Shown here in pieces: positions 27,489 to 55,918 of a stretch of DNA of 64,000 bases. The notes beneath the pieces were generated by a model that saw only the letters and a program-made list of their open reading frames with translations, had not been told where the DNA came from and searched no databases. The DNA lies in assembly GCA_964016885.1 (NCBI GenBank), contig OZ024743.1:69130001-69194000 (forward strand), read 5' to 3'. The translations under genes were made by a program, and so were the position numbers. Positions within the stretch are counted from its first letter, which is position 1, and every line of letters starts with the position of its first letter. Source of the DNA: Eledone cirrhosa (taxonomy: Eukaryota).

Positions 27489-27711
27489 TATCTTCCAACG
27501 GTTTTCAACCTCTCTATGTAAAACAATATATCTTTCTCAGTTAGAAAAGCTATCTCTCTCTCTCTCTCTCTATCACCCATCTCTCCTCCTATCTCATCCT
27601 TCCTCATTATACTCCTCTCTCTCCACTTTTTACTCTCATCTCCTTCTCTTTTTCACCCCCTCCCCTCAAAATAAAATAGTTTTTCCCAATATCACACATC
27701 AATCTAAAACT

Positions 27712-27977
27712 ACTTTTCATATGTTGATTTAAAACTGCACTATCTACAAGAGTTTTTTAACCTTCATATCATGTCTTCCTGTTTTATCTGATGAAAACAC
27801 AAATATTATTGCATGATGATATTTGTTTTTGAAATGCGCATAATAAAATACATGGAACTCTTTTAACCATCTTTTGTTCTTATATATCATGTATACTCCA
27901 GTCCTACAAACTGTAGAGTACTTCTTATCCGATATCTGCATTGCTTTATTGTACTACAATAAAACTCACCTCCTACA
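27712..27977 (+). mobile_element. ~265 bp non-autonomous HHR-bearing element (solo pLTR/retrozyme-like); paralogues at 54557-55003
   Basis: Closely matches both arms of 54557-55003; ends in (TA)n. Confidence 0.8.
27782..27848 (+). ncRNA. Type I hammerhead ribozyme
   Basis: TTTTAT-CTGATGA-long stem II (ACAAATATTATT..GATGATATTTGT)-GAAA TGCGCA TA-ATAAAA; palindromic ATGCGCAT stem III. Confidence 0.8.
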
Positions 27978-45463: not shown

Positions 45464-45703
45464 ATACGTGCTACTGTACGTCTGTATACATATATGTATG
45501 TACGTATACATACATACTTACATTTAAGTAAGTGCCATACTAAGAGTGAGAAATGAAATTTCGTTTTCATTTTTTTTCAACTTGTCGTTTTCGGTATGCC
45601 TGACCGATTTAACTCACTCAATATGCAAATTAGGCTGCTCAGCCGTTAATTTTCATAAGGAAAGTATATACTTTCGAACGTTCAACTATCTGGCAGATGG
45701 GTA

Positions 45704-45748
45704 AACGGTGCTGATGATAGCTAACAAGCTTGAAACTAGTACATCGTT
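45704..45748 (+). ncRNA. Type I hammerhead ribozyme
   Basis: AACGGTG-CTGATGA-tAGCT aaca AGCTt-GAAAC TA GTA-CATCGTT; 7-bp stem I, palindromic ACTAGT, GUA triplet. Confidence 0.8.
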
Positions 45749-45906
45749 CCTGTGTCAGTGTTGAACAAAAAGGTGACGTGGTTGCCTTAACAGCGTATGG
45801 CATAAATTCAGGCTGTTCTGTTTGTTGATAAACAAGCGAACAAAGCTGCGTTATAATAAACGTCAGCTAAACTGATGCGTGCTTATATGTATGTGTACCT
45901 GTATGC

Positions 45907-45945
<39 letters not shown>

Positions 45946-46181
45946 TGCTACTGTACGTCTGTATATATATATGTATGTACGTATACATACATACTTACAT
46001 TTAAGTAAGTGCCATACTAAGAGTGAGAAATGAAATTTCGTTTTCATTTTTTTTTCCACTTGTCGTTTTCGGTATGCCTGACCGATTTAACTCACTCAAT
46101 ATGCAAATTAGGCCGCTCAGCCGTTAATTTTCATAAGGAAAGTATATACTTTCGAACGTTCAACTATCTGGCAGATGGGTA

Positions 46182-46226
46182 AACGGTGCTGATGATAGCT
46201 AACAAGCTTGAAACTAGTACATCGTT
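46182..46226 (+). ncRNA. Type I hammerhead ribozyme (copy 2)
   Basis: Identical to 45704-45748. Confidence 0.8.
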
Positions 46227-46384
46227 CCTGTGTCAGTGTTGAACAAAAAGGTGACGTGGTTGCCTTAACACCGTATGGCATAAATTCAGGCTGTTCTGTT
46301 TGTTGACAAACAAGCGAACAAAGCTGCGTTATAATAAACGTCAGCTAAACTGATGCGTGTATATATGTATGTGTACCTGTATGC

Positions 46385-46416
<32 letters not shown>

Positions 46417-46469
46417 GCATGCTACTGTACGTCTGTATACATATATGTATGTACGTATACATACATACT

Positions 46470-46518
<49 letters not shown>

Positions 46519-46863: not shown

Positions 46864-46887
<24 letters not shown>

Positions 46888-46894
<7 letters not shown>

Positions 46895-46939
46895 CACTAC
46901 ATAAAGTCACATATGAATATATGATATATTAATATATTA

Positions 46940-46970
<31 letters not shown>

Positions 46971-46998
46971 AACACACACACACCCAGACACCCACGCC

Positions 46999-47062
<64 letters not shown>

Positions 47063-47090
47063 GGCGTGGGTGTCTGGGTGTGTGTGTGTT

Positions 47091-47121
<31 letters not shown>

Positions 47122-47173
47122 TAATATATTAATATATCATATATTCATATGTGACTTTATGTAGTGATATATA
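46888..47173. repeat. Near-perfect ~285 bp palindrome centred on (TA)n
   Basis: atatcactacataaagtcac...cacgccctctca (ta)n tgagagggcgtg...gtgactttatgtagtgatat. Confidence 0.93.
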
Positions 47174-47402
47174 AATTTTTTTTGGGGTGTTAGTAGGCGT
47201 CAGTCATCTTACCATCCCATTCCTTCTAACTAGCCTCTGTGTCACGTGATTGATTCTTTAGAATCGGCCATTTGACTTGAAGCAGTGAGAATTTCGGTAC
47301 ATAGAATCCAGTCCTCGCAAGCTGTTCGATCTACCGAATTATTATTATTTTTATATGAGCCGCCAGTGTCCGCGCATTGCCTGGAGACTTAACTGAGAAT
47401 AG

Positions 47403-47484
47403 ACTTCCTGACGACGCAATGAATTCTCGACAGTTGGATTACGTAACTGTCTTTATCCCATTGCAGAAACTAATTAGTTGGAGT
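47403..47484 (+). ncRNA. Type I hammerhead ribozyme, array unit 1 (CUGACGA)
   Basis: ACTTC-CTGACGA-cGCAATG..GACAGTT/AACTGTC..CATTGCa-GAAAC TAATTA GTT-GGAGT. Confidence 0.82.
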
Positions 47485-47976
47485 GAAAATTTAAGTAAGA
47501 AAAACATTTTTTTTAAATTTTTTTAAAAAAATATTTTCTTATTTTACGTCCTTTATATTATTGTTCTGCATTCTCCTGCATTGAACCACCTAGGTACTAT
47601 GACATAACCTGTGTATTTGCTGGCATGGGCGTGCATCTGTGCGCTTATGTTAGTTGATATATTAAATTATCTATATTTATCTCCAAATCACTGATTTGTC
47701 GAGCAAACTTGTCAAAACCACTTCTAAAAAAAAAAAAAAAAAAAAAAAATTTTTTTGGGGGTGTTAGTAGGCGTCAGTCATCTTACCATCCCATTCCTTC
47801 TAACTAGCCTCTGTGTCACGTGATTGATTCTTTAGAATCGGCCATTTGACTTGAAGCAGTGAGAATTTCGGTACATAGAATCCAGTCCTCGCAAGCTGTT
47901 CGATCTACCGAATTATTATTATTTTTATATGAGCCGCCAGTGTCCGCGCATTGCCTGGAGACTTAACTGAGAATAG

Positions 47977-48058
47977 ACTTCCTGATGACGCAATGAATTC
48001 TCGACAGTTGAATTACGTAACTGTCTTTATCCCATTGCAGAAACTAATTAGTTGGAGT
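47977..48058 (+). ncRNA. Type I hammerhead ribozyme, array unit 2
   Basis: As unit 1, core CTGATGA. Confidence 0.85.
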
Positions 48059-48544
48059 GAAAATTTAAGTAAGAAAAAAATTTTTTTTAAATTTTTTTAA
48101 AAAAATATTTTCTTATTTTACGTCCTTTATATTATTGTTCTGCATTCTCCTGCATTGAACCACCTAGGTACTATGACATAACCTGTGTATTTGCTGGCAT
48201 GGGCGTGCATCTGTGCGCTTATGTTAGTTGATATATTAAATTATCTATATTTATCTCCAAATCACTGATTTGTCGAGCAAACTTGTCAAAACCACTTCTA
48301 AAAAAAAAAAAAAAAAATTTTTTTTGGGGTGTTAGTAGGCGTCAGTCATCTTACCATCCCATTCCTTCTAACTAGCCTCTGTGTCACGTGATTGATTCTT
48401 TAGAATCGGCCATTTGACTTGAAGCAGTGAGAATTTCGGTACATAGAATCCAGTCCTCGCAAGCTGTTCGATCTACCGAATAATTATTATTTTTATATGA
48501 GCCGCCAGTGTCCGCGCATTGCCTGGAGACTTAACTGAGAATAG

Positions 48545-48626
48545 ACTTCCTGATGACGCAATGAATTCTCGACAGTTGGATTACGTAACTGTCTTTATCC
48601 CATTGCAGAAACTAATTAGTTGGAGT
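48545..48626 (+). ncRNA. Type I hammerhead ribozyme, array unit 3
   Basis: As unit 1, core CTGATGA. Confidence 0.85.
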
Positions 48627-49117
48627 GAAAATTTAAGTAAGAAAAAAATTTTTTTTAAATTTTTTTAAAAAAATATTTTCTTATTTTACGTCCTTTATAT
48701 TATTGTTCTGCATTCTCCTGCATTGAACCACCTAGGTACTATGACATAACCTGTGTATTTGCTGGCATGGGCGTGCATCTGTGCGCTTATGTTAGTTGAT
48801 ATATTAAATTATCTATATTTATCTCCAAATCACTGATTTGTCGAGCAAACTTGTCAAAACCACTTCTAAAAAAAAAAAAAAAAAAAAAAAAATTTTTTGG
48901 GGTGTTAGTAGGCGTCAGTCATCTTACCATCCCATTCCTTCTAACTAGCCTCTGTGTCACGTGATTGATTCTTTAGAATCGGCCATTTGACTTGAAGCAG
49001 TGAGAATTTCGGTACATAGAATCCAGTCCTCGCAAGCTGTTCGATCTACCGAATTATTATTATTTTTATATGAGCCGCCAGTGTCCGCGCATTGCCTGGA
49101 GACTTAACTGAGAATAG

Positions 49118-49199
49118 ACTTCCTGATGACGCAATGAATTCTCGACAGTTGGATTACGTAACTGTCTTTATCCCATTGCAGAAACTAATTAGTTGGAGT
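49118..49199 (+). ncRNA. Type I hammerhead ribozyme, array unit 4
   Basis: As unit 1, core CTGATGA. Confidence 0.85.
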
Positions 49200-49384
49200 G
49201 AAAATTTAAGTAAGAAAAAAATTTTTTTTAAATTTTTTTAAAAAAATATTTTCTTATTTTACGTCCTTTATATTATTGTTCTGCATTCTCCTGCATTGAA
49301 CCACCTAGGTACTATGACATAACGTGTGTATTTGCTGGCATGGGCGTGCATCTGTGCGCTTATGTTAGTTGATATATTAAATTA

Positions 49385-49450
<66 letters not shown>

Positions 49451-54559: not shown

Positions 54560-54996
54560 GTAGGAGGTGAGTTTTATTGTAGTACAATAAAGTAATGCAG
54601 ATATCGGATAAGATGCACTCTACAGTTTGTTGGACTGGAGTATACATAATATAAGATCAAAAGATGGTTAAAGGAGTTCCATGTATTTTATTATGCGCAT
54701 TTCAAAAACAAACATAATCATGCAATAATAATATTTGTGTTTTCATCAGATAAAACAGGAGAACATGATATGAAGGCTAAAAAACAGTTGTGGATAGTGC
54801 AGTTTTAAATCAACATATGAAACCACTTTTCATATGTTGATTTAAAACTGCACTATCCACAAGTGTTTTTTAGCCTTCATATTATGTTCTCCTGTTTTAT
54901 CTGATGAAAACACAAATATTATTATTGCATGATGATGTTTGTTTTTGAAATGCGCATAATAAAATACATGGAACTCCTTTAACCATCTTTTGATCT

Positions 54997-55003
<7 letters not shown>
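54557..55003. mobile_element. Inverted (divergent) pair of the 265-bp HHR element; HHRs at 54686-54755 (-) and 54895-54964 (+)
   Basis: Centre tcaacatatgaaa-ccact-tttcatatgttga; both HHR cores intact (CTGATGA...GAAATGCGCATA). Confidence 0.85.
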
Positions 55004-55076
<73 letters not shown>

Positions 55077-55079
<3 letters not shown>

Positions 55080-55832
55080 ACGTAAAATAAGAAAATTTTA
55101 AAAATTAAAAATCAACTTACTAAAATTTTCACTCCAACTAATTAGTGTCTGTAATGGGATAAATATAGTTACATACTATAACTATAGAGAATTCATTACG
55201 TCATTAGGGAGTCTATTCTCAGCTAAGTTCCCAGGCAATGCGCGGACACTAGGAACCCATATAAAAATAATAATTCAGTGGATGAAATAAAGCTAGCGAG
55301 GACTAAATTCGGAGCACTGAAAAAATTTCACTGCCTCTGGTCAGTGGCAGATTGTAAAGAATCAATCACATGACACCGAGGTTAATCAGTTAGGAGCGGG
55401 GTGGTATTATGACAAGAGCCTACTACTTCTTTAGAATCTGCCACTGACCAGAGGCAGTGAAATTTTTTCAGTGCTCCGAATTTAATCCTCGCTAGCTTTA
55501 TTTCATCCACTGAATTATTATTTTTATATGGGTTCCTAGTGTCGGCGCATTGCCTGGGAACTTAGCTGAGAATAGACTTCCTGATGACGTAATGAATTCT
55601 CTATAGTTATATTATGTAACTATATTTATCCCATTACAGAAACTAATTAGTTGGAGTGAAAATTTTAGTAAGTAAGTTGATTTTTAATTTTTAAAATTTT
55701 CTTATTTTACGTCTTTCATATAATTGTTCTGCACCCCCCTGCATAGAACCACATCGGTACTAAGACATAGCGTATATATTTGCTAGCATGAGTGTACATC
55801 TGTACACATATGTTGGTAGATGTACTAATTCT
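55077..55832. mobile_element. Inverted pair of a diverged relative of the 570-bp array unit
   Basis: 55077-55427 (-) and 55428-55832 (+) align to the 47174 unit; the minus-arm HHR is mutated (CTAATGA, GACA). Confidence 0.85.
55576..55657 (+). ncRNA. Type I hammerhead ribozyme, covarying paralogue of the array HHR
   Basis: ACTTC-CTGATGA-cGTAATG..TATAGTT/AACTATA..CATTACa-GAAAC TAATTA GTT-GGAGT. Confidence 0.85.
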
Positions 55833-55918
55833 ATATATATATATATATATATATATTATTGGCAACATGACCCTCCCAAAATATAACAATATATATATAT
55901 AAATATATAAATATATAT

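Follow-up and report, generated by a model that had tools for sequence, protein, structure and literature searches.

A stretch of 64,000 nucleotides from Eledone cirrhosa, referred to here as the window, contains an array (47174..49390) in which each tandem unit carries a hammerhead ribozyme (HHR), which raises the question of what kind of element the array is and by which route it was written into the genome. The initial annotation had described four near-identical non-coding units of a ribozyme replicon mobilised by a Penelope-like element (PLE). We found that the units are indeed near-identical (98-99% to one another, with periods of 574, 568 and 573), free of ORFs and each equipped with an HHR, but that the fourth is incomplete: the array amounts to 3.9 units and ends in (TA)n at unit position 497, with unit coordinates counted from the GGGGTG that lies 3' of the A/T tract. 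No ORF of at least 60 aa was found in the array and no tRNA in the unit or array, GC content is ~35%, and the insertion lacks LTR framing. Based on the analyses below, we consider it very probable that the array is a young copy of an abundant non-coding, HHR-bearing mobile repeat (a non-LTR retrozyme) that occupies many hundreds of (TA)n sites, has two fixed ends and is likely written by a PLE enzyme from an RNA predicted to cut itself. The features of the window are as follows.

46885..47176, no strand: inverted duplication of 146 bp, 99% perfect, in low-complexity flank centred on (TA)n and adjoining the 5' junction of the array
47174..49390, plus strand: one-armed insertion of subfamily f1, with three full units and a last unit that ends at the fixed long end (unit position 497); 5' end truncated inside the A/T tract
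47403..47484, plus strand: type I HHR 1, with a CUGACGA core and a predicted cut after 47479
47726..47756, plus strand: A24T7 tract, an internal hairpin specific to f1
47977..48058, plus strand: type I HHR 2, predicted cut after 48053
48300..48325, plus strand: A18T8 tract
48545..48626, plus strand: type I HHR 3, predicted cut after 48621; stem I of 5 bp, unpaired C/A, stem II of 6 bp followed by a 7x7 loop and 7-8 bp, palindromic stem III
48868..48898, plus strand: A25T6 tract
49118..49199, plus strand: type I HHR 4, predicted cut after 49194
49277..49304, plus strand: GTTCTG...GAACCAC hairpin, 4 nt 3' of the short end of the family (unit position 375 = 49273); all units have it, and otherwise dissimilar HHR families share it
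49391..49448, no strand: (TA)n target at the long end
55071..55835, no single strand: two-armed insertion of subfamily f2, ~78% identical to f1; the minus arm ends at the short end and the plus arm at the long end, both in (TA)n

The four cut positions in this list had been predicted by the initial annotation and agree with the sequence. The paralogue at 55576, with which the array had been compared, belongs to the two-armed insertion at 55071-55835, and the HHR core in the minus arm of that insertion is mutated. The inverted duplication at 46885-47176 may have arisen when the second DNA end primed snap-back synthesis, or it may be an artefact of assembly. Among 86 one-armed arms, a long flank palindrome at the 5' junction occurs only at the array of the window; five of the 86 were flagged, mostly for sequences that are short, of low complexity or part of another element, and flank palindromes were rejected as a general signature of the family.

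Every unit of the array contains CUGANGA ... GAAAC-UAAUUA-GUU^GGAG, laid out as a 5-bp stem I, CUGANGA, an unpaired C, a 6-bp stem II, a 7x7 loop, a distal helix of 7-8 bp, an unpaired A, GAAA, a palindromic stem III and GUU. At the base of stem II a C and an A are unpaired, and the cleavage site is GUU, features that we count against the model; the CUGACGA core of unit 1 carries a change that, in the numbering we assume, falls on the variable N7 position. The core and stems are conserved, and no conserved loop 1 was identified. An Rfam search of the window gave no match at the gathering score and five weak matches, none of them a hammerhead, and we therefore base the HHR call on the motif and on covariation; because stem II is long, the Rfam result was not counted against it. 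Three base pairs had been reported to covary relative to the paralogue, and these are present in the alignment as claimed. In a set of 518 HHR copies (125 distinct sequences, with copies in overlapping loci entering repeatedly), the number that retain a given pair is 510-517 for all six proximal pairs of stem II. Pair 2 takes all four forms (C-G in 352 copies, G-C in 69, U-A in 59 and A-U in 35) and pair 5 is either U-A or G-C, while G10.1-C11.1 is retained in 514 copies and the C/A mismatch in 515. A consensus fold of the whole unit, in which the HHR part is misaligned, yielded double changes in only 8 of 95 pairs, and covariation was therefore counted in a local alignment and, separately, by anchoring. 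The local alignment consists of nine related rows, with the distal helix out of register in f3 and f4; in it, changes on both sides occur in 7 of 21 HHR pairs, compared with 0-1 in slid-partner controls. The selection on HHR structure that the initial annotation had proposed is thus supported by stem II covariation across subfamilies.

Fold prediction bears on how such an HHR might act. The monomer, taken from cut to cut, folds with a z of -4.5 (0 of 100 shuffles were equally good). On its own, an HHR is predicted to fold with the core buried, at -21.1 kcal/mol versus -18.6 for the active form, and the unconstrained fold of two copies is a dimeric HHR (-51.8 versus 2 x -21.1 kcal/mol), which predicts a monomer that is inactive and a dimer that is active. 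When monomers were folded as circles, the predicted probability of the first stem I pair was 0 in five of six, a result that we count against the model. In subfamilies f1b-f4, the sequence 10-25 nt after the cut includes GTAAGT, which is kept in the older subfamilies and appears as GTAAGA in the youngest. We take GTAAGT to be a splice-donor-like motif, and PLEs are known for introns near their HHRs.

Genome pattern searches recovered 4,248 exact HHR motifs of the array's own subfamily, f1, and 12,089 of the whole lineage, each with a reversed-pattern control of 0. At least 209 near-identical matches are present in the 3.0-Gb genome, with 40 of 455 candidate regions scored. Walking outwards from f1 led to further subfamilies of ~535, 525 and 524 nt, such that the lineage has at least four subfamilies of 524-557 nt and 69-84% identity; the four form closed head-to-tail monomers in one common register, and the dispersed mobile copies range from monomers to multimers. 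The modal f1 unit is 557 nt with A7T8, relative to which the A18-25 T6-8 of the array is unusually long, and tract length tends to be common to the units within one array. Because subfamilies 2-4 carry an ordinary hairpin at the same position, we interpret the A/T tract as a recent internal expansion rather than a junction. The initial annotation had placed the A(n)T(n) tract within a hairpin that joins the units; the hairpin stands, as an internal feature specific to f1, and its role as a unit junction does not. A poly(A) tail and a ligation junction were both rejected as origins of the tract on the same ground.

Some further observations concern the subfamilies. All four conserve GTCACGTGA followed by TGATT (window 47817-47833 and homologues), which we take to resemble E-box/CCAAT promoter motifs and which may presumably act as an internal promoter. 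At loci L035, L090, L315 and L316, different subfamilies adjoin in one (TA)n run, which indicates that target sites are reused. Among the sequencing runs listed as carrying the sequence, none was of RNA. Contigs from four sequencing runs with four organism labels contain f1- and f2-type pieces that are up to 99% alike, three of these runs being at low depth, and no continuation into coding sequence was found in those contigs (one 501-nt stretch only). Runs X2, X5 and X6, under three other organism labels, contain pieces up to 99-100% alike to f1, also at low depth; for these, relatives, diet and contamination are indistinguishable.

How the copies end points to the enzyme that may have written them. 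In a first sample, made up of the 36 best-scoring loci and the window, 57 of the 59 listed 3' ends stop at unit position 375 or 497, and (TA)n follows in 58 of the 59. These two fixed ends, the short one at 375 and the long one at 497, are 122 nt apart, and both are used in the four subfamilies. The genome contains 548 exact junctions between the long end and (TA)n (control 0), which, together with the (TA)n at the listed 3' ends, bears out the TA targeting that had been proposed for the array. An ordered sample was drawn as 80 regions of contig 1, by position, from 89 listed long-end matches, leaving out four that were already sampled and the last five and including one region with two matches. 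Of these 80, 46 carry two arms head to head, the second of which stops at 375; a further 32 carry one arm, and two are unresolved. Among 118 two-armed junctions from the four subfamilies, a long end is combined with a short one in 106 and with another long one in one; none combines two short ends, and 11 are unresolved. Recurrent variants were found in both arms in 23 of 25 cases, which points to one template haplotype for both arms. By analogy, the pairing of long and short ends is the 'tail' signature of Penelope: a tail and an inverted 5' copy are described for PLEs in the text available from PMC8557442, and we call the footprint PLE-type because a tail at one end (here ~120 nt) and an inverted truncated copy match that description. 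In vitro, a PLE starts reverse transcription at two internal sites and extends both strands, as the available text of PMC11167929 reports. The two fixed ends, the head-to-head arms and the predominance of long-short pairs thus uphold the PLE-type mobilisation inferred in the initial annotation. The joint between the arms at L031 (5168-5232) contains several short repeats of one unit segment, a sign of repeated re-priming.

We also investigated where the arms break off at their 5' ends, with the expectation calculated from the bases traversed and with six duplicate arms and the arms that lack a mapped fixed end left out (n=294). Break points fall at +1..+30 after the predicted cut in 47 of 294 arms versus 17.7 expected (p 1e-9). 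The excess is present in one-armed insertions alone (12 of 74 versus 4.4 expected) and in two-armed insertions, as well as separately in f1 and in f2-4, and after correction for AT content and self-complementarity the rate ratio is 2.3 (p 1e-5), the best of 50 windows. At L209 and L183, both arms stop at the predicted cut. Exact stops are few (4 of 189 f1 arms within -1..+3 of the cut, p 0.09), a smaller excess occurs just upstream of the cut, within the palindrome (28 versus 18.9 expected), and joining could be favoured by the sequence 3' of the cut as such, since it is rich in A and U and in part self-complementary. The break-point peak provides indirect evidence, at the level of sequence, that the RNA is cleaved at the predicted site. 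PLE-type HHRs are weak in vitro and work as dimers (PMC4209133, in its accessible part), which the HHR predicted here to act only as a dimer would fit. As given in the portions available of each source, only one of nine Xenopus retrozymes cut (10.64898/2026.07.22.740005), and for an anole PLE in vitro, cleavage was not required and unprocessed RNA was used (PMC11167929); these two results, and the poor cutting of PLE-type HHRs in vitro, count against the model.

These PLE traits would also be expected if the unit were the pseudo-LTR of an ordinary coding PLE, with 5'-truncated copies and with arrays that are partial tandems or products of local DNA amplification. A palindromic stem III and an unpaired base 3' of A9 mark the HHR as PLE-type, the tail and the inversions are PLE features, and descent from a pLTR is plausible. 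However, arms that pass unit position 1 run into the previous unit and not into an ORF, the four subfamilies keep one closed register, and, with 19 genomic PLE proteins as queries, PLE coding sequence adjoins a unit in 0 of 236 family loci. Some match to a PLE protein is present at 22 of the 236, the nearest on the same strand lying 364 bp downstream. The pseudo-LTR reading is thus already contradicted at the sampled loci, and we regard it as very improbable; the initial annotation was right that the replicating unit is non-coding (the longest ATG-initiated ORF in the units is 35-53 aa) and more than a locally amplified pLTR. A coding PLE that ends in this unit, which the initial annotation had proposed to look for, was not found among the 236 family loci and 50 PLE loci. 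The genome does contain 10,596 GIY-YIG candidates, and intact ORFs with reverse transcriptase (RT) and GIY-YIG domains occur among its PLEs; a profile of the lineage compared with 50 of these candidate loci, a small sample of PLE families, detected no pLTR and no common terminus. Walking through subfamilies 2-4, 40 loci picked by motif and 30 picked by the hairpin of the short end likewise gave no autonomous driver. Long open frames with RT plus GIY-YIG at the C terminus, from several young PLE families, were observed at L127:1775-5062, L128:4809-7622, L129:2488-5019 and L130:4722-6629, and the PLE family at L130 ends in (TA)n at two sites ~55-60 nt apart, which makes it a candidate driver for other retrozyme families. 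Even less credible is that the array is a satellite or minisatellite that spread at the DNA level, for example by rolling-circle DNA, with the hammerhead a relic that does not cut. Near-identical head-to-tail units are what a satellite would give, and Li et al. invoke local amplification in the available text of 10.64898/2026.07.22.740005, but against it speak ends fixed at two sites in (TA)n, 5' truncation of variable extent, arms joined head to head, HHR covariation and a break-point peak at the RNA cut site.

The alternative that deserves most weight keeps the same element and enzyme and differs only in the template, which would always be a linear multimer from genomic arrays, partly cut by the HHR, with no circles and with arrays regrown by template jumping or unequal exchange. 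We hold this to be a real possibility, though the less probable one. The peak of break points after the cut shows linear 5' ends, and at L046 a single variant lies at register -3 in both arms, which fits a template of at least three units; at L049 and L253, the order of variants is irregular. On the other side, arms cross up to 11 HHR sites, and in the ordered sample 37 of 117 arms cross at least two and up to 10. Private variants seen in several units are fixed in all covering units in 14 of 25 cases (117 insertions), and where at least three units cover the variant, 6 of 17 are fixed throughout (3-5 units) and 11 are not. At L036, two haplotypes alternate as ABABABA over seven units, in register in both arms, a pattern suggestive of what a dimer circle would give. 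The private variants could derive from source arrays that lie outside the 117 insertions examined. A purely linear route would moreover be unable to lengthen arrays, yet the lineage has been renewed across ~30% divergence. Taken together, the variant patterns are suggestive but mixed and point to a mixture of templates, some re-read and probably circular and others cut and linear; that a circle is among the templates seems to us somewhat the better supported view. We also looked for scars of RNA editing and found no support for them: with the homopolymer hairpin excluded, private multi-unit variants comprise four A>G and three T>C (p 0.48), and single-unit variants four and 13.

How does the array's family compare with known elements? 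The descriptions used here are those in the accessible parts of the cited sources. Like the metazoan non-LTR retrozymes of PMC7229834 and 10.64898/2026.07.22.740005, it consists of non-coding tandem units of low GC with one type I HHR each, shows no LTR, PBS or PPT, co-occurs with PLEs and has an HHR predicted to depend on a dimer, as in amphibians. Its modal unit of 557 nt is above the 170-400 nt of the circles in PMC7229834 and within the consensus lengths of 51-972 bp given by Li, Clavereau and Pollet 2026 (10.64898/2026.07.22.740005), and the unit length that had been called comparatively long is therefore not unusual. It differs from those retrozymes in its PLE-type HHR, which has a C/A mismatch and a stem II that is extended; by term counts, the main texts of both papers make no mention of two-armed insertions, tails or microsatellite targets. 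A canonical HHR with a tertiary contact between loops 1 and 2 is the wording of Cervera and de la Pena 2020 (PMC7229834), whose mussel family is without it, and minimal HHRs are admitted by 10.64898/2026.07.22.740005. In both of these sources, PLE mobilisation of retrozymes and rolling reverse transcription are proposed rather than demonstrated. EN+ PLEs (Frangieh et al. 2024, PMC11167929; Craig et al. 2021, PMC8557442) share with the family two fixed ends downstream of the HHR, an inverted 5'-truncated copy, tandem insertions, an AT-rich or (TA)n target and extension from both strands; in contrast to them, the family is without ORFs, has a tail of ~120 rather than 30-40 nt and is multimeric in both arms. 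The HHR resembles the minimal variants of PLEs (Cervera and de la Pena 2014, PMC4209133) in that helix II is long and helix I short, a base lies between A9 and G10.1, G10.1-C11.1 is conserved, helix III is palindromic and a dimer is predicted; it differs in the extra unpaired A before G12, the second covarying helix past the 7x7 loop and the ORF-less monomer. The non-autonomous MRC1-type elements of Chlamys (PMC8557442) are likewise PLE passengers with multicopy head-to-tail insertions, but they resemble an autonomous family at their 3' end and belong to a clade without canonical HHRs, whereas the partner here was not found. The array has a type I HHR in consecutive units, is non-coding, low in GC and dispersed, and has a unit size within the retrozyme range; judged by its sequence, it is a new family of metazoan non-LTR retrozymes. 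No prior description of this family or of two-armed retrozymes was found in the literature, with most subscription papers and Repbase outside the coverage. The initial annotation had offered the array as a candidate new retrozyme/circRNA family; its kind is that of known retrozymes, and because the genome carries many such HHR families, the existence of this one is in itself ordinary.

What the array shares with other HHR families is a hairpin. A GTTCTG...CAWWGAACCAC hairpin begins four bases 3' of the short end, and a search with the hairpin pattern that excluded the form typical of f1-f4 returned 3,076 matches (control 6), mostly in HHR families of ~483, 459 and 519 nt. At the profile level, none of these three families showed similarity to the array's lineage. 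Of 36 TA-flanked ends in the 483-nt family, 18 fall at 0 to -2 relative to the hairpin motif and the remaining 18 at +101 to +115. The hairpin is a candidate recognition or start element of one common driver; the families could also hold it in common through remote common descent.

Within our preferred reading of a retrozyme written by a PLE enzyme, the cycle could run as follows. Tandem copies would be transcribed into multimers, in which neighbouring HHRs, to judge from fold prediction and indirectly from the break points, may pair through the palindromic stem III and cut, while a lone monomer is predicted to fold with its core sequestered. Some monomers and dimers would probably be ligated into circles. 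A PLE protein with RT and GIY-YIG, suggested by the footprint, would cut (TA)n, and reverse transcription would start within the unit at 79 and at 201 nt after the cut, with one of these two sites serving either side of the break and the RNA haplotype being the same for both. Each RT would pass several HHR junctions (up to 11) before dropping off, more often just after a cut site, and the two cDNAs would be joined head to head, or a single cDNA to host DNA as is presumed for the array of the window. The complete version, in which dimers activate cutting in vivo, misfolding of the lone ribozyme protects monomer and dimer circles, two PLE enzymes read these round from the two sides of a single break and the GUUCUG/GAACCAC hairpin is the address of one PLE protein, is one that we advance tentatively. 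If it were true, this hairpin would act as a portable cis-element at the short end, and it would suffice for an RNA circle to integrate in (TA)n. New here are the peak of break points at the cut site and the hairpin that unrelated families have in common at the short end. The large, young set of insertions predicts exactly where the RNA would be cut and the two positions at which copying would start, and it offers a hairpin as the candidate for recognition; the proposed retrozyme-PLE cycle is therefore testable in vitro and in gonad RNA.

Other HHR families lie close to the array. To its left, at 45469-46474 of the window, a second HHR repeat family has a 478-bp unit in ~2.1 copies with a short stem II (cores at 45711 and ~46189), and it forms a four-copy tandem at L137. 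A third is present at 54641-55009 and 27707-27885, with cores at 54749 on the minus strand and at 54901 and 27788 on the plus strand; the 369-bp palindrome beside the paralogue (54641-55009) is a head-to-head insertion of this third family. The flanks of loci L031-L146 contain dozens of distinct type I HHR families; in nearly all of these stem III is palindromic, and the base of stem II is often mismatched.
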